Source: Mobula hypostoma
Lineage: Eukaryota
Assembly: GCF_963921235.1 (NCBI RefSeq)
Contig: NC_086097.1
Span: 128,528,001 to 128,592,000, forward strand
Reading direction: 5' to 3'
Length of the DNA: 64,000 bases
The notes under the pieces are model-generated. The model ran no database searches and was not told the DNA's origin. It worked only from the letters and a program-made list of their open reading frames with translations. The translations under genes were made by a program, and so were the position numbers. This document shows positions 11,711 through 53,414 of the stretch, piece by piece; the first letter of the stretch is position 1; every line of letters starts with the position of its first letter.

Positions 11711-13024
11711 ATAGGAGGGGAGAGTGGAAATAGTGACAGAGAACAGGAGGAGATAGGTTGAGGGGACGAAGAGCTGCAGATGACGTAAAGGCAAATAGGA
11801 TGGTCCATGGAACCAAATAAGGGAGGTGTGGTAGGCAGCTCAAGACAGTTGGGGTGGTAACCAAGTGGAAAGAATTTGTGAGTGATGGACAGATGAAGTG
11901 GGTGGGAAGAGGAAGGAAAAAGAGTTGTGGGGGACTAAGGTTAGTGTGGGAGAAACTTGGTCGATCAAGAGGAGAGAGGGAAGAGATGAAATGTGGGGAG
12001 GAGAAGTAGTTAACCAGTAAGTAAAGAATTCAGTGACCATGGCCATAAGACCATAAGACATAGGATCACAATTAGGCTATCAAATCTGCTCTGGGAATTT
12101 CACTTTTTAATATATTCTGAAGCCATGCGCTCTGATTTTAGTCATTCCCAATATTAAAACATCCTCTCCATGTTCACTCTACCCAGGCTTTCAATATACA
12201 GTAGGTTTCAATGAGATCCCTCTCCCCTGCAGCCATTCTTCTAAACTCCAGACAGAACAGGCCCAGAAGTATCAAGCACTCTTCATATTTTAACCCTTAC
12301 ATTCCTGAGATCATTCTTGTACTCCTCTTCTGGATCCTTTCCAATGCCAGCAAATCCTTCCTTAGGTATGAAGTCCAAAACCACTCACAATACTCCAAAT
12401 GTGGTCGGACCAAAGCTTTACAAAATTTCAGCATTACATCTTTACTTTTATATTCCAGACCTCTCGAAATGAATGCTAACATTGCATGTGCCTTCCCTGC
12501 TTCCAACTTAACCTGCAAATTCACTTTTGGAGAATCTTGCACTAGGACTCCTAAATCCCTTTGGACTTGCAATTTCTAAATTTGGTCCACATTTAGAAAG
12601 CAGTCTATGCCTTTATTCCTTCTACCAAAGTGCATGACCATGTATCCCCCAATCCTCCAGCTCACTACTAAGTTTTGCTATGCCATATGCTCTCCCTTTT
12701 ATGCTTTCTTTGTCTTCTCTTTTTAGCCATGGTTGTTGCCTAATCCCCCCTTCAGAATCCTTCTTTGGGATGAACTCTCAAAATAACTCTCAGAAACTTC
12801 AGCCATTGCTGTTCCACCATCAGCCCTGCTATTGTCTTCTTCCAATCAATTTAGGCCAGTTCTCCTTCACACATTTACAGTTACTTTTATTCAACTGTAA
12901 TGCCAGTATATTGATTTTAAAAACGCAAACACGAGGAAATCTGCAGAGGCTGGAATTTCAAGCCACACACATAAAAATTGCTGGTGAACACAGCAGGCCA
13001 GGCAGCATCTATAGGAGGAGGTAC

Positions 13025-13060
13025 AGTCGACGTTTCAGGCCAAGATCCTTCGTCAGGACT
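13025..13060 (-). ncRNA. Minimal type I hammerhead ribozyme motif, core intact
   Basis: Minus strand AGTC-CTGACGA-AGGATCTTGGCCT-GAAACGTC-GACT. Confidence 0.85.
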
Positions 13061-13359
13061 AACTGAAAGAAGAGATAGTAAGAGATTTGAAAGTGGGAGG
13101 GGGAAGGGGAGATCTGAAATGATAGGAGAAGACAGGAGGGGGAGAGATGGAGCCAAGAGCCGGAAAGTTGATTGGCAAATGGGATACGAGGCTGGAGAAG
13201 GGAAAGGATCATGGGACAGGAGGCCTAGGGAGAAAGAAAGGGGGAGGGGGGAAGCCCAGAGGATGGGCAAGGAGTATAGTGAGAGGGACAGAGGGAGAAA
13301 AAGGAGAGAAATAAATAAATAAATAAATGATGGATGCGTTACGAAGGGGAGGTAAGGCA

Positions 13360-14494
13360 TTAACGGAAGTTAGAGAAGACAATGTTCATGCCATCAGGTT
13401 GGAGGCTACCCAGATGGAATATAAGGTGTGGCTTCATCTTGACAGTAGAGGAGGCCGTGGATAGACATATCAGAATGGGAATGGGACGTGGAATTAAGAT
13501 GTGTGGCCACTGGAAGATCCTGCTTTCTCTGGCGGACAGAGCATAGGTGTTCATCGAAACGGTCTCCCAGCCTGCGTCGGGTCTCGCCAATATATAGAAG
13601 GCCGCATCGGGAGCACCGGATGAAGTATATCACCCCAGCTGACTCACAGGCGAAGTGTTGCCTCACCTGGAAGGACTGTCTGGGGCCCTGTATGGTGGTG
13701 AGGGAGGAAGTGTAAGGGCATGTGTAGCACTTGTTCCGCTTACAAGGATAAGGGCTGGGAGAGAGATTGCTGGGAATGGATGGGGGGACGAATGGACAAG
13801 GGAGTCGTGTAGGGAGCGATCCCTGCAGAAAGCAGAGAGAGGGGTGGAGGGAAAGATGTGCTTAGTGGTGGGATCCCGTTGGAGGTGGCGGAAGTTACGG
13901 GGAATTATATGTGGGACCCGGAGGCTGGTGGGATGGTTGGTGAAGACAAGGGGAACTTTATTCCTAGTGGGGTGGCGGGAGGATGGGGTGAGAGCAGATG
14001 TGCATGAAATGGGAGAGATGCGTTTGAGAGCAGAGTTGATGGTGGAGGAAGGGAAGCCCCTTTCATTAAATAAGGAGGACATCTCTTTCGTCCTGGAATG
14101 AAAAGCCTCATCCTGCGAGCAGATGCGACGGAGACGGAGGAATTGCGAGGAGGGGATGGCATTTTTGCAAGAGACAGGGTGAGAAGAGGAATGGTCCAGG
14201 TAGCTGTGAGAGACCGTGGGCTTATAGTAGACGTCAGTAGATAAGCTGTCTCCAGAGATAGAAACAGAAAGATCAAGAAAGGGGATGGAGGTGTCGGAAA
14301 TGGACCAGGTAAACTTGAGAGCAGGGTGAAAGTTGGAGGCAAAGTTAATAAAGTCGACGAGCTCAGCATACGTGCAGGAAGCAGCGCCAATGCAGTCGCC
14401 AATGTAGCGAAGGAAAAGCGGGGGACAGATACCAGTATAGGCTTGGAACAGGGATTGTTCCACAACGCCAACCAAAAGGCAGGCATAGCTGGGA
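13360..14494 (-). pseudogene. PLE RT C-half, linker and GIY-YIG endonuclease (disrupted)
   Basis: FLRYIGDC, VYYKPT, RLRRICS, IRCSRCGLLYIGETRRRLGDRF spread over several frames. Confidence 0.9.
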
Positions 14495-16986
14495 GACGCT
14501 CCATCTTCCTTTCACCCCAACTCTCCCCTCTCCACTGACACCCCCAGCCTCCCCCCTGCCCCCTCTGATCCTCGCTCTCAAGATTCCAGACTTGAAGGCC
14601 AGGCTGGGTCTTCACATGCTGCTATTGTGACTCCCGTCTCCGCTTCCCCCACCACCACTCTGCAACCTCATCTCCCTCACATTCCATCAGCTACTCCTGG
14701 GCCCTCGAAGGCTCCTTCTTCCCCTCACCCCAACCCTCCCCTCTCCATTGACAACCCCAGCCTCCCTCTCCCTCCCCCCTCTGATCCCACTTCTCATCTG
14801 TGCCAGAGGCCTCTATCATCCCCTCCGACCTTCAACCGTCAGAGGCTCTGTCTTCAGTAAGGGCCTCACCTTTGTTCCCCTTCGCCTACACCTCAGCGAG
14901 TACCGTGTTCGCCATGACGCTGAACTCTTCTTCTGTTGGCTCCGCCTTCGAGCCTACTTCTTCAGCAAGGACTCTCCCACCCCCACTGATGACTCCTCCT
15001 CCCGTCTTCAACCGTCCTCCTCTTCATGGACACCCCGCTCTGGTCTTCTGCCTGCTCTGGATCTCTTTATTGCTAACTGCCGACGGGACATCAACTGTCT
15101 CGACTTCACCGCAGCTTGTTCCCGTTCCAACCTCACTCCTTCCGAACGCTTCGCTCTCCACTCCCTCTGCACTAATCCTAACCTTACTATTAAACCCGCC
15201 GATAAGGGGGGCGCTGTTGTAGTCTGGCGTACTGACCTCTACCTTGCTGAGGCACAGTGACAACTCGCGGATACCTCCTCTTATTTACCCCCTGATCATG
15301 ACCCAACTAAGGAGCACCAGGCCATTGTCTCCCACACCATCACCAACTTTATCCGCTCAGGGGATCTTCCATCCACTGCTACCAACCTTATAGTTCTCAC
15401 ACCCCGCACTTCACGTTTCTATCTCCTACCCAAGATCCATAAACCTGCCTGTCCTGGCAGACCTATTGTCTCAGCTTGCTCCTGCCCCACCTGACTCATT
15501 TCTGCATACCTCGACATGGTTTTATCCCCCCTTGTTCAATTCCTTCCTACCTATGTTCATGACACTTCTCACGCTCTGAATTTTTTCGATGATTTTAAGT
15601 TCCCTGGCCCCCACTGCTTTATTTTCACCATGGATGTCCAGTCCTTATATACTTCCATCCCCCATCAGGAAGGTCTCAAAGCTCTCTGCTTCTTTTTGCA
15701 TTCCAGACCTAATCAGTTCCTCTCTACCACCACTCTGCTCTATCTAGCGGAAATAGTCCTTACTCTTAATAATTTCTCCTTTGGTTCCTTCCACTTCCTC
15801 TAAACTAAAGGTGTAGCCATGGGCACCCGTATGGGTCCTAGCTATGCCTGCCTTTTTGTTGGCTTTGTGGAACAGTCCATCTTCCAAGCCTATACTAGTA
15901 TCGGTCCCCCACTTTTCCTTCACTACATCGACGACTGCATTGGCACTGCTTCCTGCATGCATGCTGGGCTTGTTGACTTCATTAACTTTGCCTCCAAATT
16001 TCATCCTGCCCTCAAGTTTACCTGGTTCATTTCTGACACCTCCTTCCCCTTTCTTGATCTTTCTGTTTCTCTCTCTGGAGACAGCTCATCTACTGATGTC
16101 TACTATAAGCCGACAGACTCTCACAGCTACCCGGACTATTCCTCTTCTCACCCTGTCTCTTGCAAAAATGCCATCCCCTTCTCGCAATTCCTCTGTCTCC
16201 GCCGCATCTGCTCTCAAGATGAGGCTTTTCATTCCAGGACGAAGGAGATGTCCTCCTTTTTTAAAGAAAGGGGCTTCCCTTCCTTCACCATCAACTCTGC
16301 ACTCAAACGCATCTCTCCCATTTCACGCACATCTGCTCTCACCCCATCCTCCCGCCACCCCACTAGGAACAGTGTTCCCTTTGTCCTCACCTACCATCCC
16401 ATCAGCCTCCAGGTCCAACATATAATTCTCCGTAACTTCCACCATCTCCAACGGGATCCCACCACTAAGCACATCTTTCCCTCCCCGCCTCTGCTTTCTG
16501 CAGGGATTGCTCCCTACGCGACTCACTTGTCCATTCGTCCCCCCATCCCTTCCCACCGATCTTCCTCCTGGCATTTATCCTTGTAAGCGGAACAAGTGCT
16601 ACACATGCCCTTACACTTCCTCCCTCACCACCATTCAGGGCCCCAGACAGTCCTTCCAGGTGAGGTGACTCTTCACCTGTGAGTCGACTGGGGTGATATA
16701 CTGCGTCCGGTGCTCCCGATGTGGCCTTCTATATATTGGCGAGACCCGACACAGGCTGGGAGACCATTTCGCTGAACACCTAGGCTCTGTCCACCAGAGA
16801 AAGCAGGATCTCCCAGTAGCCACACATTTTAATTCCACGTCCCACTCCCATTCTGATATGTCTATCCACGGCCTTCCCCGCTGTCAAGATGAAGCCACAC
16901 TCAGGTTGGTGGAACAACTCCTTATATTCTGTCTGGGTAGCCTCCAACCTGATGGCATGAATATTGACTTCTCTAACTTCCGTTAA
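14495..16986 (+). pseudogene. PLE RT and GIY-YIG ORF, 5'-truncated, with stops and frameshifts
   Basis: KGLTFVP, IKPADKGGAVVV, MDVQSLYTSIP, MGTRMGPSYA, YIDD at 15924-15935, CVRCSRCGLLYIGET. Confidence 0.93.
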
Positions 16987-17027
16987 TGTCCCACCTCCTC
17001 TTCATACTCCATCTGTTATTTATTTAT

Positions 17028-17060
17028 TCTCTCTCTCTCTCTCTTGCTCTCTCTCTCGCT

Positions 17061-17097
<37 letters not shown>

Positions 17098-17150
17098 CCC
17101 CCTTTCCCTCTCTCCCTTCCCCCTCCTCCTCCCCTCCCCCTCCCTCCCCT
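17028..17150 (+). repeat. (CT)n/polypyrimidine expansion inside the PLE pseudo-LTR
   Basis: Visible CT repeats, much longer than in sibling copies. Confidence 0.9.
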
Positions 17151-17371
17151 TTTTCTCCCGCTGTCCCTCTCACTATACTCCTTGCCCATCCTCTGGACTT
17201 ACCCCCTCCCCCTTTCTTTCTCCCTAGGCCTCCCGTCCCATGATCCTCTCATATCCCTTTTGCCAATCTACTAACCAGCTCTTGGCTCCATCCCTCCCCT
17301 TCCTGTCTTCTTCTATCATTTCGGACCTCCCCCTCCCACTTTCAAATCTCTTACCATCTCTTCTTTCAATT

Positions 17372-17407
17372 AGTCCTGACGAAGGGTCTCGGCCCGAAAC
17401 ATCATCT
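17372..17407 (+). ncRNA. Hammerhead motif, 3' side decayed
   Basis: AGTC-CTGACGA-AGGGTCTCGGCCC-GAAACATC-ATCT. Confidence 0.65.
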
Positions 17408-18279
17408 GTACCTCTTCCTATAGATGCCTTCTGGCCTGCTGTGTTCACCAGCTATTTTTATGTGTGTATATTGATTTTAACTTCGGCCTCTCAAGCTGCA
17501 AGGTGAGTTCTATCATATTATGATCATTGCACTCGAGGATTTCTTTACCTTATGCTCCCTAATCAAACCTAGTTCAATGCACAAAGCCAAATCAGAATTG
17601 CATTTTTTCGGGCGGGCTCTATCAGAAGCTGTTCTAAAAAGCCACCTTTCCTCATCTTTCCCACAGCTCCCACTGTCAATCTCACAGACAGCAACAATCA
17701 TAGACCTGTTGGACAAGCACAAGAGCTAAGGCTCCTCCAGTACTATCACTTGGATCTGCCTACCTTGCTCACTCACAGTCACACCCTCTTGTCCCTGGCC
17801 ACAGACTAAATTTCAGTTGTTAATGGGTGTTACTGCCTCCTGAAACACAGTGTCCATGTAACACTCTCCCTCCCTGATGCATCAGAGTGTTTGAAGTTCA
17901 GATTCCAGGTCATCAACTTCGAGCCTGAGTTCCTCAAGCAACCAACACTTGCTGCAGATGTGGTCACCAGGAACCACAGTGGGGTCCACCAGCTCCCACA
18001 TCATGTAGCTACAACACATCACCTGATCGTGCATCCCTACTTTATTCAGTTAATTATAATATGGTGTATTTTTATTGAACTATATAAAAACACTACCTGT
18101 TCTTACTTGCTACTCAACTGTGCCTCTCTGCCGATGCCTCTTGAGCCAAAGCAAGTTCCCAGTTCTGCACTGGCAATGTCCATACTGCCAGATTGTCGCA
18201 GCCAGGTAAAAAGCAGGCTGTTTTGTCCTGGATGGGGTCAAGATCCTTGAGAATTGTTGACACTGCACTCATCCAGGCA

Positions 18280-18797
18280 AGAGGAGAATATTATATCATT
18301 TAGACAATGGCTACATTTCATTAGGATTTTGAAGAGATATGGTTTGTCACCTAAGATACTCAAAAACTTCTATAGATATACTGTGGAGAGCATTCTGATA
18401 GGCTGCACCACTCATCACTGTTTGGTATTGGGGTGGTGGGGGGAGGCTACTGCACGGGACCCGGGACCAAAGGAAGCTACAGAAAGTTGTAAAGTTAGTC
18501 CGCTCCATCATGGGTACTGGGCCTCCGTAATAATCAAGACATCTTCAAGGAGCAGTGTCTCAGAAAGGCAACATCGACTATTAAGGACCCTCATCACCTA
18601 GGGCATGCCCTCTTCCCATTGTTACCGTCAGGAAGGAAGTACAGAAGTTTGACAGCACACACTCAGTGATTTAGAAACAGCTTCTTCCCCTCTGCCTTCT
18701 GATTCCTAAATGGACGTTGAACCCATGAACACTACCTCACTTTATATATATCTCTTCTGTTTTTGCACTATTTTAATCTATTACAAACACACACACA

Positions 18798-18857
<60 letters not shown>

Positions 18858-18950
18858 CATATTTACTGCAATTTATTTATTTATTCTTTCTATATTATCA
18901 TTTATGCTGCTGCTAATCTGACAAATTTCACAACACAACCTGATTCTGAT
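18280..18950 (+). mobile_element. Rex1/Babar-like LINE 3' fragment
   Basis: RQWLHFIRILKRYGLSPKILKNFYRYTVESILIGC; (CTGATT)n tail. Confidence 0.8.
18788..18851 (+). repeat. (CA)n microsatellite
   Basis: Direct reading. Confidence 0.97.
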
Positions 18951-18969
18951 TCCAGTGACTCGTGTCTTA

Positions 18970-19083
18970 TGCACAAAGTAATCTGCAGATACAGTCCTGA
19001 TGAAGGGTTCCAGCCCGAAACGTCGACCAATCTTTTCCACGGATGCTGCCCGACCTGCTGAGTTCCTCCAGCGTGTTGTGAGT
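18970..19083. mobile_element. 114-bp inverted mini-PLE with hammerhead at 18993-19028
   Basis: ~21 nt antisense terminus, then AGTC-CTGATGA-AGGGTTCCAGCCC-GAAACGTC-GACC; probable TSD GTGACTCGTGTCTTA (18955-18969) / GTGATCCATGTCTTA (19084-19098). Confidence 0.75.
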
Positions 19084-19291
19084 GTGATCCATGTCTTACG
19101 TTTGGTGGAAATTCTACCAGAATATCAGAAAATTAGTTACTTGCCATGGGATGACCTGTTTTCATATTCATGCCATCCATTGAGCCCAACATACTTGGTC
19201 ATTTGGTCAACCATGCCCACCAGATGGTAGTGTTCTCCAGAGTTATTGGATATCATCACTCTACTGTTGGAACTACATGGTAGGAGTCTTA

Positions 19292-19989
19292 AGGCTAATT
19301 TATACTTCTGCGTAGTAGCCTACGCTGTTGTGAACATTTATACTTGTGCGTTGGTGTGTCTGCGTCTCTCTGCAATTCGTCGCCAAAATGCTAGTTGGCG
19401 GTGGGGTTTCTACGCCACTGTGTTTCAACACAAAGAAACTCAAACTTCAAACAATGGCGACTGAAACTGAAGGAGGGTGAATTTTCTGTGCTTGTCCGGC
19501 CACTGAGAGACATGGACGAGGAAATGCATTTCAAATATTTTCAGATGTCGGCAGGTAGATTTGACGATTTGGTTCATTGTCTCCAACCATTTATTTCGCA
19601 TCAGTGTACGCACAGTATACTCAGAGACTGGCAATCACCATTTGAGTTTTAGCTTCAGGTGGAAGTCAACAGGCTGTAGCAGCTAGCTACAAGCTGGTGT
19701 CAAGTACAGAGTCCCCCATAATTTCAGAGGTCTGTAAAGCTTTATGGAAAGCATTGCAGTCAGAGTTCCTCCCCTGCCCTTCAGTCGCCCAATGGGAAGC
19801 TATTGCAGCGTAGGAGGAAATGCGATGCTACCAAGCGGACCAATCACAGCTGTCGTGGTCTGCAACGCCGCGACATGTAGTTACATTTTTGGGGAGGTGC
19901 GTGTCAGGCTATGGCATAGGGTACAGCGTAGGGTACGTGGCTACGCCGTACCTACGGCGTAGATTTGATGCTGAAGTATAAATTGGCCT
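19292..19989 (+). mobile_element. PIF/Harbinger non-autonomous deletion derivative
   Basis: TIRs AGGCTAATTTATACTTCTGCGT / AGGCCAATTTATACTTCAGCAT (reverse complement); TTA TSD at 19289-19291 and 19990-19992; transposase relic [28 protein letters not shown]. Confidence 0.92.
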
Positions 19990-20300
19990 TTATTTGCCAC
20001 TCATCAACCCTTGCTTCATTGTTTGCTGCATGTACCTAGGGAGTGGATTTTCCTGGGGAGCAATTGGACATGTTGGGTGAGTGACTTATTGTCTGCAAGC
20101 CCTTCAGAACACCTTTATGGGATTAGGCAATAGCAGAGCGTTGACGAGAACAATTATGTTTCTGCCACTGCTTCATAAACTGGTTAAGCTGCCCCTCTTT
20201 ACTTCAAAACTGTTAAAAGAATGTCTCTGAATAGAAAAAACACAATTATAGGATTCAACTATTTTAAATGATTCATACTTAAAGCTTTTAAATATATTTG

Positions 20301-20484
20301 AAACTTGAGAAATTCTGCAGATGTTGGAAATTCAAGTCAGCATACACAAAATGCTGGAGGAACTCAGTAGGTCAGGCAGATCTATGGAAATGAATAAGCG
20401 AACAGTCCTGAAGAAGGGTCTCGGCCCAAAACGTCCACTGTTGTTTCATTTCCATTCATGCTGCTTGACCTGCTGAGTTGCATC
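20301..20484. mobile_element. 184-bp palindromic mini-PLE whose loop is a decayed hammerhead (20404-20439)
   Basis: Antisense terminus 20301-20407, then sense CTGAAGA-AGGGTCTCGGCCC-AAAACGTC; TSD AA(A/G)TATATTTG at 20290-20300 and 20485-20495. Confidence 0.82.
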
Positions 20485-21084
20485 AAGTATATTTGATTTT
20501 ATGTTTCAAAGTACTTAGTTAATTACTATGAATTTCATGGAATGCTATGCTTCTCTATCTCACTGCCTTTGCTCTCTATTGTAAGGAATGGGGTTACCAA
20601 AACTTTGCTTATTCTGTCCTATTGCAGATTCAGCAGGCAGACTTCCCAGTGTAGTGGCTGGGAAGCTGCCAAATATTGCTGGGAGTCTCATGAACTGCTG
20701 GATTTTCTGACAGTCCACTAGCGGAATGCGATTGGAATGACAGGTACAAGCACTTCTCAGGAAGTTTGCATTCACATTCAAATGAGTGGATCTCTGAAGA
20801 AGATTTTATAACTGGCCATCAAGTTAACCTTATAGTTAACTATGCTTTATCAAGCTGCATGACACACAGTTACCCACAAATTCTGTCATCAGACACATGT
20901 AAATGGCAATACTAGCCCATTCTACTTTGATCCATGTCTAACTTAAGACTATCTAAAAAAATTTTCTCTCTTTTTAGAAGGGACCTTAAAACAGTTGATA
21001 ATAAATGCATTAGGTAATGAAAAACAGAAACACTGAAGTACAAATCCATTAAATGTCAATAATTATCCAGCAAATAAGTAGGCT

Positions 21085-24000
21085 TATAATTCAAAATTCA
21101 AAGTTCAAAGTGAATTTATTATTGAAGTATGTATGCAGAATGTCACCATATACTACCCTGAGATTTAATTTCTTGCAGGCATTCACAGTAGGTACAAAGA
21201 AACACAATAGAATTAATGAAAAACTACACACAAAGAGGTTGGACAAACAACCAACGTGTAGTAGAAGGCAAACAGCAAATACAAAAATAAGTAAATAAAT
21301 AAATGAATAAATGTCCACAATCATCTCTTTGGTCTTGTCCACATTGAGAACCTGAGTTGCAGAAACCTTGAAAATGAGCCCATTCGTTGTGAAATCAGTT
21401 CAGCATTGAGATGAGTGAAGTTATCCACACAGGTTCGGGAGTTTGATGGTTAAAGTGTAATAACTTTTCCGGAACTTGGGAACTAAGGCTCAGTACCTCC
21501 TTCCCGATAGCAGCAGCAAGAAGAAAGCATGGCCTGGCTAGTAGGGGTCCATGGTGATGGATGCTGTTTTCTTATGGCAATGTTCCTTTTAGATGTGCTC
21601 AAAGGTGGGGAGGGCATTTTCCTGTGACAGACTGAACTGTATCCATTACTCTTTGTAGGCTTTTCCATTCACGGGTGTTGGTATTTCCATACCAGGCCAC
21701 AACGTAACCGGTCAGGATACTCTCTATTGTACATCTATAGAAGTTTGTCAACGTTTTAAATGGCATGCCGAATCTGCACAAACGTCTAAGAAAGTAGTAG
21801 CGCTGCACACACACTTTTCGTCCCTCTTCCCTCCGGGAGAAGGCTCAGGAGCTTGAAGACTCGTACGGCCAGATTTGGGAACAGCTTCTTTTCAACTGTG
21901 ATAAGACTGCTGAACGGATCCTGACCCGGATCTGGGCCGTACCCTCCAAGCATCCGGACCTGCCTCTCGGTTTTTTTGCACTACCTTACTTTCCATTTTT
22001 CTATTTTCTATTTATGATTTATAATTTAAATTTTTAATATTTACTAATTTTTACGATTTTTAATATTTAATATTTGTAATCCCAGGAGCGGGAAGCACAG
22101 AATCAAATATTGCTGTGATGATTGTATGTTCTAGTATCAATTGTTTGGCGACAATAAAGTATAATGGTGCTTATTTGTTCTGGTCCCAGAACTGACCCTC
22201 AAATTGAACAACACCAAGGAATTTGAAGTTACTGATCTTCTCCACCTCCGATCCCCTGATAAGAACTGGCTCACGGATTTCCGGTTTCCTCCTCCTGCAG
22301 TCAATAATCCTTTCTCTGGTTTTGCAAACATTGAGTGAGAGGTTGTGCTGTGGTACCATTCAACCAGATTTTCAATCTCCCTCCTACATGTTGACTTGTC
22401 ACCACTTTTGATTCGGCCAACAACAGTGGTGTTGCCAGCAAACTTGAATATGGCATTGGAGCCGCACTTAGCCTCACAGCTATACGCATAAAGCACGCAG
22501 AGCAGGAGTCTGAGCATACAGCCTCGTGGTGCAACTGCGCTGTTTTTAATTGTAGAGGAGATGTTGCCAATCCAAACTGACTAGGGGTCTGCAAGTGAGG
22601 AAAGCAAAGATCCAGTTGCACAAGGTCTTGGAGTTTATTGATCAGTTTTGATGGGTTGAATCAAGCGTTCCCAACTGTTTCCGCGGAGGAGCCATTTATG
22701 TGCAGTGAGGAGTGGGTCAGCCTGCTGTTTTCCAAAGTCCACAATCATCTCTTTGGTCTTGCCCATGTTGAGATGCAAATTATTGTGATCACATCATCAT
22801 TTTACCCGCCACGCTACCTGCCCTCTGTGCGCCATCTCATCATCGTTGCTGACGGGGCCAATCACTATCCTGCCATCAGCAAACTTGATTATACAGATAG
22901 AATTGGATCTAGCAATGTGCTCATGCATCAACATTATGAACAGCAGTGAGCTGAGCACACAGCCCTGGCTAGGGTGGGTCCAGTGCTCAGCTTAATGGAG
23001 CTAGACATGCTTCTGCCAACAAAGACTGACTGTGGCCTTCCTGTGAAGAAGTCCAAGATCCTGTTCCAGAGAGAGGTGTTGAGACCCAACAAGGATAATT
23101 TACCCATCTACTTCTGAGGGATGATCATATTAAATGCCAAGCTCAAATTGATAAACAGTTTCCTGGTATATGAAGCACCATTTTCCAGGTGGAACCGAGT
23201 GGAGTGGAGTGCAGAGTCTCTGGCATCATCAGTGGACCCATTTGAGAGATAAGTGAAGTGGGAAGAGTCCAATGTAGCAGGAAGATGCGATTTAATGCGA
23301 TCAATAACCAGCTGCTCGAAGCACTTCATTATTGTTGAGGTTAGTGCCACTGGACGGAGTTGTTAAGGCAGGTTACTGTCGCCCTCTTGGGCACTGGGTC
23401 ACGGTACCTACTTTTAAGTGTGCAGGGACAGTGGACAGTTCCAGAGACATGTAGAAGGTGTCTGTTAGAACTTCTTGCTGACCCGAGAGCTGCCCTATCC
23501 CGTGATCTGAAGGCAGCATCCTGATCTCTCAGCCATACCCGGACCCCTACTGTCAGCCTTGGCTTCTGGATGGTCCTCACATAGATGTCTTTAATAATGG
23601 TAACATACTCAATGCACTGTTCTATATGGCCAGCCTCATATCTCACATATACAGCGATGTTAATGCCATGGTCATAGGTATCCACCTGTCTGAATGTATT
23701 CCAGTCCGTGTTTTCAAAACAGTCCTACGATGTTGAGGTTCTCCTTCCGGCCATGTCTGTATCTCCTTTTGAACTGGTTTGACTCATTTAATCAGTGGTC
23801 CATATTAGCATAACAGATAAGTGGTTAGAATATCTGAGGTGGGGGTAGAGAGCAGCTTCACATGTACCAGGTAATGTTGGTATGAACTAGGTCTAATGTG
23901 TTTTCACCTCTGGTAGCAAAGTCAACATGCTGATAGAACTTAGGCAGGACCATTTTTAAGTTAGCATGGTTGAAGTCGCCAGCAGCATTAAAGAAATCAT

Positions 24001-26225: not shown

Positions 26226-27289
26226 GCTATCTCCACGCTGTAATGAGTCAAGTCAAACAAATACGGTAATTATGAGTACAATGGAAAATTTGCTTGGAGC
26301 AGCATACTGTAGATAAATCAACAACCCACAGAAGTTACAGTGAAGAAAAGGGACTGTTCAAAACAATCCGTTAGTGGAAACAAATCAGGGACACATCCAT
26401 GGTAGTGCAGGAGCTGGTCTGTATTTCTTACATTGCAGAGGTAGGATTCAGGTTGTGCAGGACATTTCAAAGCCTGATGGTTGTAGGAAAGGATATCATG
26501 GTGTGACACTTCAGCCTTTTGACCTCTTTCCCAAAGCCTCTTCCTCCTTTGTCATGGGCACACTGATTTAGCAATGTAAGTGTTAACATCTGCCAACATA
26601 CTGTATATAAGCCTGTAGCCCGTGTAGGCTGTGAGGCATCTCCTGTCCCTTTAAATCAATCCATGCCTTTTGTGGCATCGCAACGTAGGTTATGCTGGAT
26701 CCCTGCAGGCAACTTCCCTGAAGCCAATGACAGGCCTGCTCTTGGTGGCAGGAATCCCACTGTGAGAATGGGAAATGATCCAGAACCCGTGGAAATGGGT
26801 CAGTGCCGGGCTGGTGTGAGAGAAATGCTGGCCTTGAAGAGGAGACTACCAGTTATTAGAAGCATCCTTGTAGTTGCTATGTTATTGAGGACAAGGCTTT
26901 TTCATTGCATGGACATTAAAGAAGGAAGTCATTTTAATATCGCTTAAGCTGTTTGGTTCTAAGCCATGTGAGTGCAAAATGAAAATGAATCTGACGGAGT
27001 GAAGTGTAGCTCACTGCCGTTTGAAGCTTATTTCATTCACCGTTCATTCCTGATTCAGTCAGGTCACATGGACCCAAAGATAAAGCACACAGGGAAAGCG
27101 AGTAGTCAAATAATCACTGGTAATGTGACCCTTGGGTATTGCTACACTCAATAGAAATGCAGACAGTGAAGTATCTCAATTAGTCAAAAGTTGCATTACT
27201 AGCAAATAAAAATTAAAATACTTCATCTCAACTATGTCAAAGTTCAAAGTAAATTTATTATCAAAGTACACATATGTCACAATCTACTA

Positions 27290-28020
27290 GAGGGAGGTGA
27301 TGGTCAGGTGGGGAGAAGAGAGGGGTTAAGAGGGAAGCCAGTATGGGTGATGGAAAAAGAGAGAAGGGGGAAAGGGAGAAATTACCTGAAGTTAGAGAAA
27401 TCGTCATTCATGCTACAAACAAGAGAAAATCTGCAGATACTGGAAATCCGAGCAACACACACAAGATGATGGAGGAACTCAGCAGACCAGGCAGCATCTA
27501 TTGAAAAAAGTACAGTTGAAGTTTTATCATGCTGTCAGGTTGGAGGCTACCCAGGTGGAATATGAGGTATCGCTCCTCCAACCTGAGTGTGATATCATCT
27601 TGGCATTAGAGGTGACCATGGACCAACATGCTGGAATGGGAATGGGAAGCAAAACTAAAATGGGTGACCACTGGGAAAGCCTGCCTTTCATGGTGGATGG
27701 AACGAATGTGCTCTATATGGTCCCCCAATCTAAGTCGGGTCTCACTGTGTAATGGAAGCTGCACCATAAGCACTGGATATAGTAAATTACCCTAACAGGC
27801 TCACAGGTAAACTGTTGTCTCATCTGGAGGGATTGCTTGGGGCCTGAATGGTAGTGAGAGAAGAGGTGTAGGGACAGGTGTAGTTCTTGTCCTGCTTGCA
27901 GGGGTAAGGGCTGGGACAGAGATCAGTGGGGATGGATGACTGGACATGGAGGTCAGGTAGAGAATGGCCCCTGTGGAAAACAGAGAGTGGTGGGAGGGAA
28001 AATGTTGTTGGTGGTAGGTT
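27290..28020 (-). mobile_element. Older PLE GIY-YIG/pseudo-LTR fragment with a nested PLE terminus at ~27416-27520
   Basis: Diverged reverse complement of the 134-660 region. Confidence 0.75.
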
Positions 28021-28299
28021 AGCATTTCCTTCTTGCCTGCAAATTTATTGCACAGATGAAGGCCATTTAGTCCACGAGGTCCACTTCATAGAAGAATCTC
28101 ACCAGTTCCCTTTTCCCTCTCCCAATTGCCATCTATCCTTGCAACTCACTGTCTCTCACATGCCCATCAAAAACTCCGACTTTTTTTCACTTACCCACAC
28201 TAAGCTTAAGATGAGATATCATCCTATTTCATCAGAGGTAGGACAATCCACAATATCCTCACATTAATCAAGAATTGCCTGACCTAGTGAGTATTCATC

Positions 28300-30270
28300 C
28301 CCAGCCCTTGAACTTCCCCACCCACCTAGCTTCACCTATTACCTTCCAGTTAGCCTCGTTCCCCTACTCCCTCCTTTTAATTCAGGCATCTCCCCACCCG
28401 CTTCCCTCTCAGACCGGAAGAAGGGTCTCAGCCCAAAATGCCGACCGTTTACTCATTTCCATAGATGTTGCCTGACCTGTTGAGTTCCTCCAGCATTTTG
28501 TGTGTGTTGCTTTGGATTTTCTGCATCTGCAGATTCTCTCGTGTTTTCAATTCCATCCCCTCGTTTGCCTCATTTTCACCATGGATGTCCACTCTCTATA
28601 CACTTCTATCCCCCATCAAGAAGGCCTTAAACCTTTAAACTTCTTTCTCAACAGCAAACCTGACCAATTCCCTTCCACCACCATCCTCCTTTGTCTGGTG
28701 GAACTGGTCCTCACTTCCAGTCCCTCTCACTTCCTTCAGACTCAAAGTGTAGCCACAGGCATCCACATGGGCCCCAGCTATTCCTGCTTTATCACTGGCC
28801 ACCTGGAACAGTACATGTTCCAAACCTTCCCTGGTAATGCTCCCCAACTCTTTCTGTGCTACATTGATGACTGCATTTGTGCTGCTTCCTGCACCCATGC
28901 TGAGCTAGTTAATTTCATCAACTTTGCCTCCAACTTTCACCCTACCCTTAATTACACTTGGTCCATTTCTAACACTTCTCTCCTCTGTCTCGATCTCTCT
29001 GACTCCATCTTTGGAGTCAAAATGTCTACCAGTATCTTTTATAAACCTACCGATTCTCGAGGCTATCTTGACTATACCTCTTTCCGCCCTTTCTTCTGTA
29101 AAAATTCCATTCCCTTTTCTCATTTCCTTTGTCTCTACCCTGTCTGATCCCAGCATGAGTCTTTCCTTTCCAGGACATCCAAGAATGGGGTTTCTAATCC
29201 TCCACCATTAATGCAGCCCTCACCCACAACTCTTCCATTTCCTGGACGTCCACACTCATCCCATCTTCCCGCCTCTTTAATCAGGATAGAGTTTCTTTTG
29301 TCCTCACCTACCACCCATGAGCCTCCACATCCAATGCATCATTCTCTGCAGCTCCTGCCATTTTCAATGGGACCCTACCACCAAACACATCTTTACCTCC
29401 ATCCGCCTGCCCACTCACCATTTTCCACAGGGATCAGTTCCTCTGTGATTCCCTCGCCCATTCCTCCTTCACCACCAATCTCCCTTCTGGCACCTATCAC
29501 TGCAAGCAGCAAAACTGCTATACCTGCTCATTCATCTCCTCCCTCACCTCCATTCAGGGCCCCAACGAGTCCTTCCAAGTGAGGCAACACTTCACCTGCA
29601 AATCTGTTGGGGTCATTGATTGCATCCAGTGCTCTCAATGTGGCCTCCTCTGCATGGGTGAGACCTGATGTAGATTGAGAGACTGCTTTGTCAAGCACCT
29701 CCGCTCCATCCGCAAAAGAAGCAGGATTTCCTGTTGGCCAACCATTTTCATTCCCTATCCACCCCCTGTTCTGACGTGTCAGTCTGTGGCCTCCTCTTCT
29801 GCCATGATGCAGCCACTGTCAGGTTGAAGGAAGAACACCTCATGTTCTGTCTAGGTGATGACATGAACATCAACTTCTCCAACTTCCGATCATTTCTTTC
29901 CCTCTTCTTCAATTCCCCATTTTAGCTTCTTCTGCCTATCATCTGCCCCTCCTCCTCCTTCCCCTTCTTCCATGGTCCACTGTCCTGTCCTGTCAGATTC
30001 CTTCTTTTCCAGCCCTTTACCTTTTCCACGTGTCACTGCCCAGCTTCTTAATTCTCCACCTTCTCCCCACTTCACCTCTCACCTTCTAGCTTGTGCTCCC
30101 TCCCCTCCCCACAGTTCCTTATTCTTTCCTTTCCAGTCCTGATGAAGGGTCACGGTGTGAAATGTCGATTATTTACTCTTTTCCATAGATGCTGCCTGAC
30201 CTCATGAGTTCCTTCAGCACCATGCATGCATTGCTTTGGATTTCCAGCACCTGCTGATCTTCTCATGTTT
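28300..30270 (+). mobile_element. Older PLE: pseudo-LTR end, truncated RT-EN, pseudo-LTR
   Basis: MDVHSLYTSIP, HMGPSY, CYIDDC in ORF 28500-29147; decayed hammerheads at 28411-28446 and 30135-30170. Confidence 0.88.
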
Positions 30271-45364: not shown

Positions 45365-45419
45365 TATATAATTGAACTTATTTTCCCAGTGATGCGCAGT
45401 GAAATTTTGGAGATGAAGG

Positions 45420-46540: not shown

Positions 46541-46599
46541 TAAGAGAACTGCCAGTCTCTTAATTCAGCAGGCCAGGCAGCATCTCTAGGAAGAGGTAC

Positions 46600-46635
46600 A
46601 GTCGACGTTTCAGGCCAAGACCCTCCGTCAGGACT
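46600..46635 (-). ncRNA. Hammerhead motif with one core substitution
   Basis: Minus strand AGTC-CTGACGG-AGGGTCTTGGCCT-GAAACGTC-GACT. Confidence 0.72.
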
Positions 46636-47238
46636 AACTGAAGGAAGAGTTAGTAAGAGATTTGAAAGTGGGAGGGGGAGGGGGAGATCCAAAATGATAG
46701 GAGAAGACAGGAGGGGGAGGGATGGAGCCAAGAGCTGGACGGGTGATTGGCAAAAGGGATATGAGAGGATCATGGGACAGGAGGTCCAGGGAGAAGGAAG
46801 GGGGGGGCGGGAAACCCAGAGGATGGGCAAGGAGTATAGTCTGAGGGACAGAGGGAGAAGAAGGAGAGAGAGAGAAAGAATGTGTGTATAAAAATAAATA
46901 ACGGATGGGGTACGAGGGGGAGGTGGGGCATTAACGGAAGTTAAAGCCCCACCTCCCCCTCGTACCCCATCCGTTATTTATTTATATACACACATTCTTT
47001 CTCTCACTCTCCTTTTTCTCCCGCTGTCCCTCTGAATATACCTCTTGCCCATCCTCTGGGTCGCCCCCCCCCTTGTCTTTCTCCCTGGACCTTCTGTCCC
47101 ATGATCCTCTCATATCCTCTTTGCCAATCTCCTGTCCAGCTCTTGGCTCCATCCCTCCTCCTCCTGTCTTTTCCTATCATTTTGGATCTCCCCCTCCCCC
47201 TCCCACTTTCAAATCTCTTACTAATTCTTCCTTCAGTT

Positions 47239-47274
47239 AGTCCTGACGAAGGGTCTCGGCCCGAAACGTCGACT
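47239..47274 (+). ncRNA. Minimal type I hammerhead ribozyme motif, fully intact
   Basis: AGTC-CTGACGA-AGGGTCTCGGCCC-GAAACGTC-GACT: CUGANGA and GAAA boxes, GUC triplet, palindromic ACGT stem III. Confidence 0.9.
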
Positions 47275-48647
47275 GTACCTCTTCCTAGAGATGCTGCCTG
47301 GACTGCTGCGTTCACCCGCAACTATGATGTGTGTTGCTTGAATTTCCAGCATCTACAGAATTCCTGTTGTTTGAGTCTCTCAATTTGCCTCCTGCTCCAT
47401 CCTGTTGCCTACTCTGATCTACCCCTCAGCTAGACCTACTTCAGATTGTTGCCAACAAGATAAGTGACGTTCTGCAACCTTTCTGCAAACATTTAATCTG
47501 AGTCTGTTCCCTAAAGTCTGGCCCACTCCTACATTCACTCCTATATTTGCCATGTATTTTCTGTCTGTGACTGAGGTGATCTCAACTTTACCCACCCCAC
47601 TAGCAATTAACCGCCAAAAATTGTGGCAAAGCTGGTGAGGTTAAAATGAGCCCTTATCTTGGTGACACATATGCCAGTAGATTCAGGAAGCCACATACAA
47701 TTTTGAATTTAAAACTGGATTGAAGATTATACTTTCGTATGCATTGAGACCTGTCTCTCGGAGGTTAAAGGCAATCTTCTTTACTCTGGACTTTAGACAA
47801 AACCATGCTACTGAATGGCCCCCAGTCAAAGTAGACTAGATTCCATACTTGTTTCTTTCTGTAGACAGGCCTGACTCAAATCTTAAATATGCCTTTCTTT
47901 GAGTAAATCAGATAATTACTAGACAAACATCATTTGACAGGTGCCCTCTGGAAAGAATTACATTCCTGCATATGAACTACTATTTAAATTAAAATGCTTA
48001 AGAATAAAGCAAATATCCATCTCTTCGACCTGATACTTATTTTGTGGATTTATCTGTTATTTCGTTTGTAGAACCAGCTCTTTGATAATAACTTCCTGTT
48101 TTCTTTCTAGTTTAAACATGACTAATGCAGCAAAATTTAATAAGTGCTTCATGATGATGTATCAGTTCCCAGTACAAGAGCTGAGGGATGCATTATAACC
48201 TCTTGGATGTTTAAGTTATGACCTTTCTGTGGAAAATAAACATTGCACTTTGATTTCAATCTAAGGTCCTAATAGCACCAGTATGATTATTTTCACCCAG
48301 AAAAAAGAGGGACAACATAATCAGCCACATTATCAGAGAAGTGTAACCCTTTCAAAGCAGCAGGAGCAAAATTCATAAATGCTTTGTGATGGAATGAAAG
48401 GTCACATTTTGCAACTCACCTTCTCACTGTTTATTATAGAGATACAGCACAACATGGAAGTAGGCCCATTGGCCTATCAAGTCAATGCTGACCATCAACC
48501 ACGTATTTTTACACAAATCCTAACCTAAGTAAGTCCTTTTCTTCTCCTTGCATTCCCATCATCTCTCCAGATTCTATGATTTCTCGTCTGTCTTTGGATT
48601 GAAGGAGGAAACCAGAATCCTAGAGGACACAGGGAGAATGTGCAAAC

Positions 48648-49080
48648 TCCAAACAGCCTCCTGGGTGCCAGGGTCCAGGATGTCTCTGACCGGGTGCACG
48701 ACATCCGGGTACGAGAGGGAAAGCAACCAGCAGTCGTGATACATGTTGGTACCAACGACATAGGCAGGAAGAGGGATGAGGTCCTGAAGTATGAGCTTCG
48801 GGAACTAGGCAGAAGGCTGAAGAACAGGACCTCAAGCGTGGCGTTCTTAGGATTGCTGCCAGCGCTATGTGACAGTGATGGTAAGAATTGGAGGAGATGG
48901 CAGTTGAATGCGTGGCTGAGGAGTTGGTGCAAGGAGCAGGGTTTTAGATTTTTGGGTCATTGGGATTTCTTCTTGGGAAAGTGGGACCTGTACAGATTGG
49001 ATGGGTTGGACCTGAGCTCGAGGGGGAGAAATATCCTTGCAAGTAGGTTTGCTAGCATGGTTCGGGATGGTTTAAACTAA
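48648..49080 (+). pseudogene. CR1 ORF1 C-terminal SGNH/GDSL esterase domain (5'-truncated)
   Basis: VIHVGTNDIG..NAWLRSWC..GFRFLGHWD..YRLDGLDL (usual DGLH altered). Confidence 0.88.
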
Positions 49081-49124
49081 TTTGCAAGGGGAATGGGACC
49101 TGGAGCGAGAGAGCAGTAGAAGAA

Positions 49125-52009
49125 GTGCATGGAGTAAAGCCAGATCTAATATATAGAGAGGCTTTGAGGAAAGAGAAGCAGAATAAACGGTGTAAAGGTA
49201 GTAAGGTAGAAGGGCTAAAGTGTGTGTACCTCAATGCAAGAAGCATCAGGAACAAAGGTGATGAACTGAGAACTTGGATACATACATGGAATTATGTTGT
49301 AGTGGCCATTACAGAGACTTGGCTGGCACCAGGGCAGGAATGGATTCTCAATATTCCCGGATTTCAGTGCTTTAAAACGGATAGAGAGGGCGGAAAAAGG
49401 GGAGGAGGGGTAGCATTACTGGTCAGGGATACTATTACAGCTACAGAAAGGGTGGGTAATGTAGCAGAATCCTCTTTTGAGTCAGTATGGGTGGAAGTCA
49501 GGAACAGGAAGGGAGCGGTTACTCTATTGGGAGTATTCTATAGGTCCCCTGGTAGCAGCAGAGATACAGAGGAGCAGATTGGGAGGCAGATTTTGGAAAG
49601 GTGCAAAAATAGCAGGGTTGTTATCATGGGTGACTTTAACTTCCCTAATATTGATTGGCACCTGATTAGTTCCAAGGGTTTAGATGGGGCAGAGTTTGTT
49701 AAGTGTGTCCAGGACGGATTCCTGTCACAGTATGTGGACAGGCCGACCAGGGGGAATGCCATACTAGATCTAGTACTAGGTAATGAGCTGGGTCAGGTCA
49801 CAGATCTCTCAGTGGGTGAGCATCTGGGGGACAGTGACCACCGCTCCTTGGCCTTTCGCATTATCATGGAAAAGGATAGAATCAGAAAGAACAGGAAAAT
49901 TTTTAATTGGGGAAGGGCAAATTATGAAGCTATAAGGCTAGAACTTGCGGGTATGAATTGGGATGATGTTTTTGCAGGGAAATGTACTATGGACATGTGG
50001 TCGATGTTTAGAGATCTCTTGCAGGATGTTAGGGATAAATTTGTCCCGGTGAGGAAGATAAAGAATGGTAGGGTGAAGGAACCATGGGTGACAAGTGAGG
50101 TGGAAAATCTAGTCAGGTGGAAGAAGGCAGCATACATGAGGTTTAGGAAGCAAGGATCAGATGGGTCTATTGAGGAATATAGGGAAGGAAGAAAGGAGCT
50201 TAAGAAGGGGCTGAGAAGAGCAAGAAGGGGGCATGAGAAGGCCTTGGCAAGTAGGGTAAAGGAAAACCCCAAGGCATTCTTCAATTATGTGAAGGAAAAA
50301 AGGATAACAGGAGTGAAGGTAGGACCGATTAGAGATAAAGGTGGGAAGATGTGCCTGGAGGCTGTGGAAGTGAGCGAGGTCCTCAATGAATACTTCTCTT
50401 CGGTATTCACCAATGAGAGGGAACTTGATGATGGTGAGGACAATATGAGTGAGGTTGATGTTCTGGAGCATGTTGATATTAAGGGAGAGGAGGTGTTGGA
50501 TTTGTTAAAATACATTAGGACGGATAAGTCCCCGGGGCCTGACGGAATATTCCCCAGGCTGCTTCACGAGGTGAGGGAAGAGATGGCTGAGCCTCTGGCT
50601 AGGATGTTTATGTCCTCATTGTCCACGGGAATGGTACCGGAGGATTGGAGGGAGGCAAATGTTGTCCCCTTGTTCAAAAAAGGTAGTAGAGATAGTCCGT
50701 GTAATTATAGACCAGTGAGCCTTACGTCTGCGGTGGGAAAGCTGTTGGAAAAGATTCTTAGAGATAGGATCTATGGGCATTTAGAGAATCATGGTCTGAT
50801 CAGGGACAGTCAGCATGGCTTTGTGAAGGACAGATCGTGTCTAACAAGCCTGATAGAGTTCTTGGAGGAGGTGACTAGGCTTATAGATGAGGGTAGTGCA
50901 GTGGATGTGATCTACATGGATTTTAGTAAGGCATTTGACAAGGTTCCACACAGTAGGCTTATTCAGAAAGTCAGAGGGCATGGGATCCAGGGAAGTTTGG
51001 CCAGGTGGATTCTGAATTGGCTTACCTGCAGAAGGCAGAGGATTGTGGCGGAGGGAGTACATTCAGATTGGAGGTTTGTGACTAGTGGTGTCCCACAAGG
51101 ATCTGTTCTGGGACCTCTACTTTTCGTGATTTTTATTAACAACCTGGATGTGGGGGTAAGAAAGGTGGGTTAGCAAGTTTGCAGATGACACAAAGGTTGA
51201 TGGTGTTGTAGATAGTGTAGAGGATTGTCAAAGATTGCAGAGAGACATTGATAAGATGCAGAAGTGGGTTGAGAAGTGGCAGATGGAGTTCAACCTGGAG
51301 AAATGTGAGCTGGTACACTTTGGAAGGAGAAACTCCAAGGCAGAGTACAAAGTAAATGGCAGGATACTTGGTAGTGTGGAGGAGCAGAGGGATCTGGGGG
51401 TACATGTCCACAGATCCCTGAAAGTTGCCTCACAGGTAGATAGGGTAGATAAGAAAGTTTATGGGGTGTTAGCTTTCATAAGTCAAGGGATAGAATTTAA
51501 GAGTCGCGATGTAATGATGCAGCTCTATAAAACTCTGGTTAGGCCACACTTGGAGTACTGTATCCAGTTCTGGTCACCTCACTATAGGAAGGATGTGGAA
51601 GCATTGGAAAGGGTACAGAGGAGATTTACCAGGATGCTGCCTGGTTTAGAGAGTATGGATTATGATCAGAGATTAAGGGAGCTAGGGCTTTACTCTTTGG
51701 AGAGAAGGAGGATGAGAGGAACACATGATAGAGGTGTACAAGATAATAAGAGGAATAAATAGAATGGATAGCCAGCACCTCTTCCCCAGGGCACCACTGC
51801 TCAATACAAGAGGACATGGCTTTAAGGCAAGGGGTGGGAAGTTCAAGGGGGATATTAGAGGAAGGTTTTTTACTCAGAGAGTGGTTGGTGCGTGGAATGC
51901 ACTGCCTGAGTCAGTGGTGGAGGCAGATGCACTAGTGAAGTTTAAGAGACTACTAGACAGGTATATGGAGGAATTTAAGGTGGGGGGTTATATGGGAGGC
52001 AGGGTTTGA
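49125..52009 (+). pseudogene. CR1 ORF2 (APE endonuclease and reverse transcriptase), two +1 frameshifts
   Basis: [54 protein letters not shown] at 51178-51189 in the next frame; second shift near 51722. Confidence 0.95.
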
Positions 52010-53253
52010 GTGTCGGCACAGTATTGTGGGCCAAAGGGCCTGTAATGTGCTGTACTGTTCTATGTTCTATGTAAAAACATACTTTGGGGTTGAACCCAAG
52101 TCTTTGGAGCTGTGATGTAGCAGCTCCATTAGGTGTACCACAGTGTTTCCAATATTGGGATAGGTCGGAGCTATTTCTGACAGTGCCATGTTACTGACCC
52201 CCTGACTCTTGGTAGATCAGTCTGAGGAATAAACCAAGTCGATAAGGTAGTTGGGAACAGCCTTCTCTTTCCTGGTGAAGAAGGAGCTACTCACTATTGC
52301 CTTACAGGGCATCCTGCAAACTGACAAAAGGCCATGATATCAAAGTCAGCAAGTTCAAAGAAATAAAGACCATGACACTTTATGTGCTTGGAAGAGTCTG
52401 ATCGATTGGCCTTTCACCCTACTGTTCATTTATTTGATTCTGGGAAAGCTTAAGAATTAGAAGATGTTAAACAGTGCCATTCCCTAATTTTATTTCATAA
52501 CATTTAGTTTTAGCCAACTCTTAATTCATTCACAATAAATCAGAAAGATCATTTGACAATGTAATGAGAGATCACTCATAGGCTTTTAGGTGCCTCAAAT
52601 CTAAACCCCTTTAAGCAAAAAGAGCTCTATTCCCATGACAACATGTCGGCTTCATTTTTTTAGCACCACATGAAAAGTTTTCTGATTAGTCCCCCAAGTC
52701 AGTAACTCTGGTTCTTTTATATATTGGTATGAGCTGTAAAATATAGTTTGATAATGTACATTGAGAAACATTGGGTTTGAGACCGTTTTCCCCACATACG
52801 CTAAAGTAGTTTGAAGTTGAATGGGAGTAATTTCAATAAGATATTCTTACAGTGAAGCTATTACCTGTTCCATCAGCCTCACTAAAAAGGAAGAATGGAA
52901 AATCCCAACAGAGTCAGGCTGAATACTATCACTGCTTCAAAGAAGCTCTTTGTTAAAGGGGATACTTCAGCCTTTGACTCCTCCATTAGGATATTCAAGG
53001 CATCTGATTCAGATGCCCAAAGAATGGCCTTGGTAACTTCAGCAGATGTCCTGGAGTAGGTTAGGAACAGACCACCCAACAGCAGAATTGGTATACTTTG
53101 TCCCATTTTATTCACAGGAAACTCAAGCTCATCACACCAAATTCTACCTCCTTGTTCTTTTTTACTGCAATTTAAAATTAAGACAATTTCAGGCTGGTCA
53201 AGTGCCTGGAAAAGTTCTGGAACAGTGCCAGGAACTGTTTAAAGAAAAATAGG

Positions 53254-53414
53254 GCAACACACAGAAAATGCTGGCCAGGCAGCACCTTTGGAAAAAGTAA
53301 ACAGTCAACCCTTCGAGCCCAGCTCCCCTCGTAGCTGATGCTGGACGTACTGAGTTCCGCCAGCATTTTGTATTTTACTCAAGCTTTCCAGCATATGTAG
53401 AATATCTTGTGTTT
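53254..53414. mobile_element. Old palindromic mini-PLE; another PLE terminus with decayed hammerhead at ~53450-53570
   Basis: AAAATGCTGG / CCAGCATTTT arms around an eroded antisense hammerhead. Confidence 0.65.

Follow-up and report, generated by a model that had tools for sequence, protein, structure and literature searches.

Head-to-head Penelope-like element insertions in Mobula hypostoma: one-sided tails and a tentative origin by twin priming

How does a retroelement come to lie in a genome as two opposed copies of its own 3' end, with both ends pointing outward and only one of them complete? The question is raised by a 64,000-nucleotide stretch of Mobula hypostoma DNA (assembly GCF_963921235.1, contig NC_086097.1, positions 128,528,001 to 128,592,000; hereafter the window, numbered from its first letter), repeat-rich vertebrate DNA in which profile matching picks out about 20 end-module copies of a Penelope-like element (PLE). 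Five loci, here E1 (12921-17465), E2 (18970-19083), E3 (20301-20484), E4 (46566-47373) and E5 (53254-53414), had been described in an earlier note on this DNA as pairs of opposed PLE 3' segments with their ends outward, and this description was borne out at all five. With a rough probability of 0.45, and so somewhat short of even odds, we read them as truncated insertions of a Neptune-type PLE that arose by twin priming on a single RNA, the copy primed at the tail following and displacing the internally primed copy but never passing it.

In every pair exactly one arm carries the complete terminus, or tail, and this arm reaches less far inward into the element than its partner. The earlier description of the complete arm as short inward holds in that sense but not always in bases, the tail-bearing and tail-less arms measuring about 103 and 85 nt in E3, 433 and 379 nt in E4, and 82 and 82 nt in E5. 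Alignments place the outer end of the tail-less arm about 36 to 66 nt before the terminus (about 36 in E5, 41-43 in E1, 43-45 in E2, about 58 in E3 and 64-66 in E4), close to the 35 to 65 nt first estimated. The tail-less arm extends further inward in five of five pairs (two-sided p=0.0625); that it also owns an unpaired centre does not apply to E2, whose arms do not overlap and form no loop. Overlap between arms grows from none in E2 to about 50 nt in E3, about 370 nt in E4 and about 1530 nt in E1, with junction microhomology of 0-1 nt in E2, 5 nt in E3 and 4 nt in E4.

Four of the sites had been credited with a target-site duplication (TSD). Scored against 3000 random site pairs, the duplications of E1 (15 of 15 matches, no random pair being as good), E3 and E4 (0.23% of random pairs as good in each case) are solid, that of E2 (15 bp with three mismatches) is marginal, since 6% of random pairs do as well, or 2.9% with its own left flank fixed, and E5 has none (79% of random pairs as good). 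An inverted and a direct segment inside one TSD are thus solidly documented in E1, E3 and E4, marginally in E2 and not in E5. Because the short ends adjoin intact TSD copies in E1, E3 and E4, three times over, they are unlikely to be later deletions, as the earlier note had also held, and post-insertion deletion was rejected for these three loci (Table 1).

Table 1 Coordinates of the head-to-head insertions and of a sixth, one-armed insertion (pLTR stands for pseudo-long terminal repeat and RT for reverse transcriptase)
Feature	Position	Strand	Remarks
E1 left TSD	12906..12920	+	15 bp, identical to 17466-17480
E1 tail-bearing arm	12921..14494	-	1574 nt: C-terminal part of RT, linker, GIY-YIG, pLTR, hammerhead, tail
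E1 tail-less arm	14495..17465	+	2971 nt; ends 41-43 nt before terminus
E1 unpaired centre	14495-15835	+	1341 nt; DKG at 15201, FTMDV at 15624
E1 right TSD	17466..17480	+	8/15 matches to the element's would-be continuation (shuffle mean 4.2, p=0.02)
E2 left TSD candidate	18955..18969	+	12/15 matches to 19084-19098; marginal
E2 tail-only arm	18971..18990	-	20 nt; no overlap with other arm
E2 tail-less arm	18991..19083	+	93 nt; begins at 5' edge of hammerhead motif; 43-45 nt short
E3 left TSD	20290..20301	+	12 bp, 1 mismatch to 20485-20496
E3 tail-bearing arm	20302..20407	-	inner end in 5-nt hammerhead stem I word common to both arms (20403-20407)
E3 tail-less arm	20403..20484	+	carries hammerhead core; about 58 nt short
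E4 left TSD	46554..46565	+	12 bp, 1 mismatch to 47374-47385
E4 tail-less arm	46566..46943	-	64-66 nt short; owns 4-nt loop 46936-46939
E4 tail-bearing arm	46940..47373	+	8 subfamily-specific sites common with left arm
E5 tail-less arm	53254..53335	-	decayed hammerhead core; 14-nt internal microhomology-bounded deletion; about 36 nt short; no TSD
E5 tail-bearing arm	53333..53414	+	apparently different subfamily
Sixth insertion	111..1125	+	13-bp perfect TSD (111-123, 1113-1125); long tail-bearing arm 127-1112

The arms of E4 share eight sites against all other copies and are split from each other by three, with 22 differences in 279 gap-free pLTR columns, and because of the eight shared sites they are assigned to one source lineage. 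The loop bases match the antisense reading and hence belong to the tail-less left arm, the 4-nt microhomology (46940-46943) comes from a natural palindrome at the end of the open reading frame (ORF), and the inner ends lie no more than 8 nt apart after some 400 nt. E4 as it stands forms an 800-nt hairpin, near-perfect and closed by a 4-nt loop, which would give a long double-stranded RNA if transcribed. The E1 arms differ at 145 of 1504 aligned columns, and at 26 of 279 gap-free pLTR columns, with two subfamily-specific sites common to both; the left arm has a 20-bp deletion bounded by microhomology. They also differ by a 14-bp indel, the segment being present in the left arm and in the copy at 124-1112 and absent from the right arm and from both E4 arms.

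Because there is no overlap between its arms, E2 is an L1-style inversion and not an inverted repeat; an element stretch of about 17-19 nt is absent from both arms. Its 20-nt arm is a real tail, ranking seventh among 127,962 window positions against a profile built without it, a score equalled by none of 319,905 shuffled positions. At 19085, 417 contigs of one sequencing run (X1) have loose ends that carry about eight element-like bases and then AT-rich sequence in which agreement is low, which hints that a tail-less end at this place is common. A little downstream, a 700-bp repeat at 19289-19989 is missing from this site in the organism of run X20, one contig of which joins 19288 to 19990.

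A comparison with assembled contigs from four runs covered the stretch 12000-21500 (E4 and E5 lie outside it) and 15 of 9541 joints. The right junction of E3, that of the tail-less arm, is bridged by contigs in X1 (possibly the source sample, with no differences) and in X5, another organism with 11 differences in 717, and the left, tail-bearing junction by contigs in X1 and X13 (28 differences and three gaps over 381); E3 is therefore old and its ends are not an assembly error. No contig of this stretch spans the centre of E3 or crosses any whole insertion, and contigs at the left junction of E1 and the right junction of E2 do not bridge because they extend less than 31 nt into the element. 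Of the 15 joints, five connect a sense arm that begins at the hammerhead's 5' edge with an antisense arm whose inner end varies, and none is an empty-site joint. Junctions between antisense arms and the hammerhead edge thus recur in these genomes, although which arm bears the tail is not visible from the joints. The joints that lead to 20344 and 13023 were discounted as paralogue mosaics. Hammerhead cleavage was considered as the source of the inner end of E3, where the predicted cut coincides with it, but the 5-nt stem common to both arms explains this end equally well and the proposal was dropped.

One further insertion, the one-armed copy at 124-1112, bears on the question. An 11-nt inverted match (116-126 versus 1072-1082) links its left edge to the zone where tail-less arms end, eight of the nucleotides lying in the TSD and three being inserted; such a match arises at 72 of 4000 random sites when sought anywhere in the element, and at one of 4000 in the tail-less zone. 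Positions 124-126 are possibly a 3-nt tail-less inverted arm following 8 nt of complementarity between target and RNA, that is, an aborted second priming. Among 13 regions tested for an inverted arm, 12 gave none other than the arm of E5 itself.

How, then, might such pairs arise? A staggered cut would leave two 3' overhangs of 12-15 nt, the length shown by the TSDs. One target end would prime at the terminal start site and copy the tail, while the other, finding that site occupied, would prime 36-66 nt upstream with the aid of partial pairing, both presumably on one RNA. The upstream enzyme would lead, and the tail-primed enzyme would either halt before the internal primer, giving E2 with its L1-style inversion, or continue by strand displacement (E3, E4 and E1), as a PLE enzyme might, and so recopy a stretch of the RNA. 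The two antisense cDNAs would be joined through short inverted matches, seen at the junctions as 5 nt in E3 and 4 nt in E4, and filled in by a presumed repair route, leaving a head-to-head pair whose unpaired centre lies on the tail-less arm. A tail-primed enzyme that passed the internal site first would leave a plain one-armed copy, like the tail-bearing, TSD-flanked copies at 124-1112 (13 bp), 27415-27526 (7 bp) and 31866-32031 (10 bp).

The scheme would account for several features at once: one tail per pair, because the occupied terminal site would force the other end to start upstream; the polarity, because a follower could not pass the leading upstream enzyme; the adjacent inner ends of E4, because the follower would catch a stalled leader; and the 3-nt trace at 124-126, because an aborted leader would leave a one-armed copy that keeps no more than a vestige of inversion. 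The TSDs give a modest hint of partial pairing, since in four of four cases their agreement with the element sequence that lies directly beyond the tail-less end exceeds that of shuffles (8/15 in E1, 6-7/15 in E2, 5-6/12 in E3 and 4/12 in E4), with a combined Fisher p of 0.009 or 0.037 depending on the TSD copy used. That both target 3' ends primed cDNA, as the earlier note had proposed, is probable and has in vitro backing from a purified PLE enzyme, which cuts and extends both strands and has two start sites bounding the tail (PMC11167929).

Several observations weigh against twin priming on one RNA. The pairing is weak singly, with p<0.05 in E1 only and 4/12 in E4; the flanks of E5 and of the piece ending at 32917 fall below the shuffle mean; the register used for E2 was taken from another subfamily; and in the text consulted the start sites of the purified enzyme, PAc, are not homologous to the DNA it cuts (PMC11167929). 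The model requires strand displacement by a PLE RT over 1.5 kb, which we infer. The 14-bp indel of E1 is difficult for a single template, which needs later gene conversion or a repeated deletion to explain it, and is the best evidence for two templates, yet it is one character in one insertion. The arms of E5 align poorly and look like different subfamilies, and because it also has no TSD, E5 may not be one single event. If 124-1112 is a real pair, which is possible, its tail-bearing arm owns the centre and it is a formal exception; counting it gives 5/6 (p=0.22), and restricting the count to the pairs with a solid TSD and overlapping arms, E1, E3 and E4, gives p=0.25. The asymmetry had been put forward as a rule; with 5/5 at p=0.0625 or 5/6 at p=0.22, it is not statistically established from the window, and the polarity is a small-sample, unproven pattern.

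The E1 indel is where a second template, as the earlier note had favoured, has most to offer. Here one primer would use the RNA end and the other either a further pLTR copy within a tandem transcript or another RNA bound by the dimer, and the two cDNAs would then join by microhomology. Each state of the indel is shared with other insertions, the unlike arms of E5 would be natural, strand displacement becomes unneeded, and PLE loci are tandem, with multimeric RNAs having been proposed (PMC11167929). The same route does not explain why each pair has just one tail, since another copy brings a free tail site with it, why the tail-less arm is further inward in five of five pairs, or why the inner ends of E4 are nearly equal. 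Apart from the indel, the E1 arms are about as close as those of E4 (26/279 versus 22/279) and share subfamily features, and these copies commonly show deletions bounded by microhomology (20 bp in the left arm of E1, 14 bp in that of E5). We consider two templates rather unlikely and hold, tentatively and at a little under even confidence, that one RNA explains more than two, but fails on the E1 indel.

Plain snap-back from the loop-bearing arm is excluded, as had been argued before, since it cannot supply the tail of the partner. A more elaborate fold-back, with one RNA and two primers, would have the internally primed cDNA snap back on a palindrome, copy itself and switch onto a short tail-primed cDNA. 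It strictly predicts the polarity, fits the E3 and E4 junctions, which coincide with natural palindromes whose small loops belong to the tail-less arm, and is in keeping with the joints at the hammerhead edge that recur in four related organisms. It is nevertheless improbable, for it requires an extra template switch, must accommodate a loop of 1341 nt in E1 and leaves the 14-bp indel unexplained; short stems are moreover common (11 four-base stems at about eight places in 382 nt), and joining by microhomology yields the same junctions.

One published suggestion for the palindromic head-to-head junctions (PMC3846280; PMC8557442) is self-priming on an antisense transcript to give a hairpin, from one arm of which an endonuclease (EN) or repair strips the tail (Arkhipova 2013; "EN-mediated resolution", Craig 2021). 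It would place the loop on the antisense, trimmed arm. The non-overlapping arms of E2 cannot be obtained in this way, the E1 arms differ by the 14-bp indel, and the boundaries of the tail were later identified, in the text consulted, as sites where RT starts on sense RNA (PMC11167929), all of which makes this route slightly less credible than fold-back. That there is no rule at all, centre ownership being random, five in a row being chance and some pairs (E5) being neighbouring independent insertions, is compatible with the two-template route, with p=0.06 for 5/5 and 0.22 for 5/6, with the missing TSD of E5 and with the density of PLE end modules (about 20 in 64 kb), but is very improbable, as the window holds no demonstrable single insertion in which the tail-bearing arm owns a long centre.

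Twin priming on one RNA also has a strict form, in which a dimeric enzyme holds both ends on one RNA, the tail-primed RT displaces the internal one, and the tail-bearing arm is never further inward than the tail-less arm save for aborted arms of a few bases. This we regard as possible but doubtful. If true, a single mechanism would explain why the tail is one-sided, why the pLTR is inverted and why the junctions are palindromic, features of the PLE cycle that others have called undefined. It is the polarity that could matter; what this window by itself provides is a lead and not a result.

The source element is assigned from its domains, motifs and linker to a PLE of the Neptune/Nematis type. 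Pfam placed an RT domain (PF00078) on 28476-29144 with an E value of 1.3e-6, just below the curated cut-off, and a GIY-YIG domain (PF01541) on 13409-13861 (E 2.3e-5), four of six fragments being without a Pfam match. The endonuclease ORF at 109-651 has its best relatives, as the best two of 19 matches, in predicted ray and shark proteins (79 and 84% identity), and carries GLIYCIWCSRCGLLYIG, a CxxC between GIY and YIG; in E1 the RT motifs, with the DKG motif at 15201, lie upstream of EN. DKG and a CxxC between GIY and YIG are named features of EN+ PLEs, and a zinc-finger-like CX2-5CxxC linker ahead of GIY-YIG defines the Neptune and Nematis clades (PMC8557442). A CX4CxxC linker, CKRNKCYTC, occurs in the ORFs at 109-651 and 13406-13861, in agreement with that definition, although the linker has no power to separate Neptune from Nematis; a first guess at the Poseidon clade was dropped because the linker is of Neptune type. 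The EN+ PLE hallmarks found here are an RT followed by a C-terminal GIY-YIG, DKG and CxxC, and a pLTR with hammerhead, optional tail and inverted 5'-truncated partner.

The hammerhead motif was read by eye against its published description (PMC4209133); it had no Rfam match, and no Rfam model scores it. At E4 the sole Rfam matches were hairpin-driven, microRNA-like and below threshold. A stem-loop near the tail-less zone reached z -2.68 in one copy, but full end modules gave z 0.19 to -1.51 and 12 aligned copies showed no consensus structure, leaving the stem-loop unsupported. Pattern scans for further copies returned one viral, five metagenome and three prokaryote matches, presumed to be chance.

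Other PLE copies lie between and beside the pairs. A 112-nt tail-bearing scrap with a 7-bp TSD (27408-27533) sits inside the endonuclease end of an older PLE of the same orientation (27280-28018). Another older PLE, at 28270-30271, has pLTRs in direct orientation, both with a tail, the upstream pLTR and tail joining mid-RT, probably through an internal deletion; the two older copies were rejected as a scorable sixth pair, being 34% divergent and without a TSD. At about 32680-32917 a tail-less single piece with no clear TSD seems to interrupt a repeat, which we take to be SINE-like (a short interspersed nuclear element). About 40 nt from E5, a further decayed end module (53416-53557) resembles the right arm of E5; E5 may belong to several separate insertions clustered here. 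The window also holds, at 49056-51762, a nearly intact frame (705 aa and 200 aa) resembling ORF2 of a long interspersed nuclear element (LINE), with endonuclease and RT motifs recognized by eye.

The architecture itself is known. Craig et al. (2021, PMC8557442) describe an EN+ PLE unit as having an adjacent inverted 5'-truncated copy, a 30-40-bp tail often at one end and a TSD, which they ascribe to EN-mediated resolution by a mechanism called undefined, and they state the origin of tandem and inverted PLE insertions as open; for Pen2a_Av, Arkhipova et al. (2013, PMC3846280) report an inverted pLTR, a tail, 8-10-bp TSDs and palindromic junctions and propose self-priming on antisense RNA. Our literature search, which covered neither subscription papers nor figures, found no paper that says on which arm the tail lies, extends twin priming to PLE pairs or sets out a rule by which the tail-less arm owns the centre, so the rule may be in print. 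The insertions described here are new examples, ordinary and abundant for their class. With the canonical EN+ PLE unit they share the inverted copy, the tail at one end only, the TSD round the unit, the palindromic or overlapping junction and the pLTR hammerhead. The TSDs are longer than those of the rotifer element (12-15 bp versus 8-10 bp) and the shortfall is 36-66 nt versus 30-40, while the text consulted leaves unstated which arm bears the tail.

The hammerheads resemble the minimal type I motifs that Cervera and De la Pena (2014, PMC4209133) describe for metazoan PLEs in their core (CUGAYGA ... GAAA), the missing helix III, the palindromic 15.2-16.2 positions and a 5-bp helix I, though here any activity is putative. 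A purified PLE system exists in PAc, the Poseidon of Anolis carolinensis, which in vitro cuts and extends both strands, starts RT at two sites that bound the tail and has a predicted dimeric form (Frangieh et al. 2024, PMC11167929); in the text consulted that study says nothing of inverted pairs, the word "inverted" appearing once, for a blocking group. Cutting and extension of both target strands, as our model would have it, two starts bounding the tail and AT-rich targets are common to both systems, whereas PAc belongs to the Poseidon clade and the element here has the Neptune/Nematis-type CX4CxxC linker, and the weak pairing with the target seen here contrasts with the non-homologous starts of PAc. 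In L1 twin priming, one end primes at the RNA 3' end and the other anneals internally on the same RNA, followed by joining through microhomology (Kojima 2010, PMC2912911). E2 has exactly the L1 form, but here no more than tens of bases separate the internal site from the end, and the overlap of the arms reaches 1.5 kb at most, so that displacement, fold-back or a second template is needed. The insertions thus work like twin priming and differ from the L1 product, whose segments overlap little; among the five, E2 alone has no overlap.

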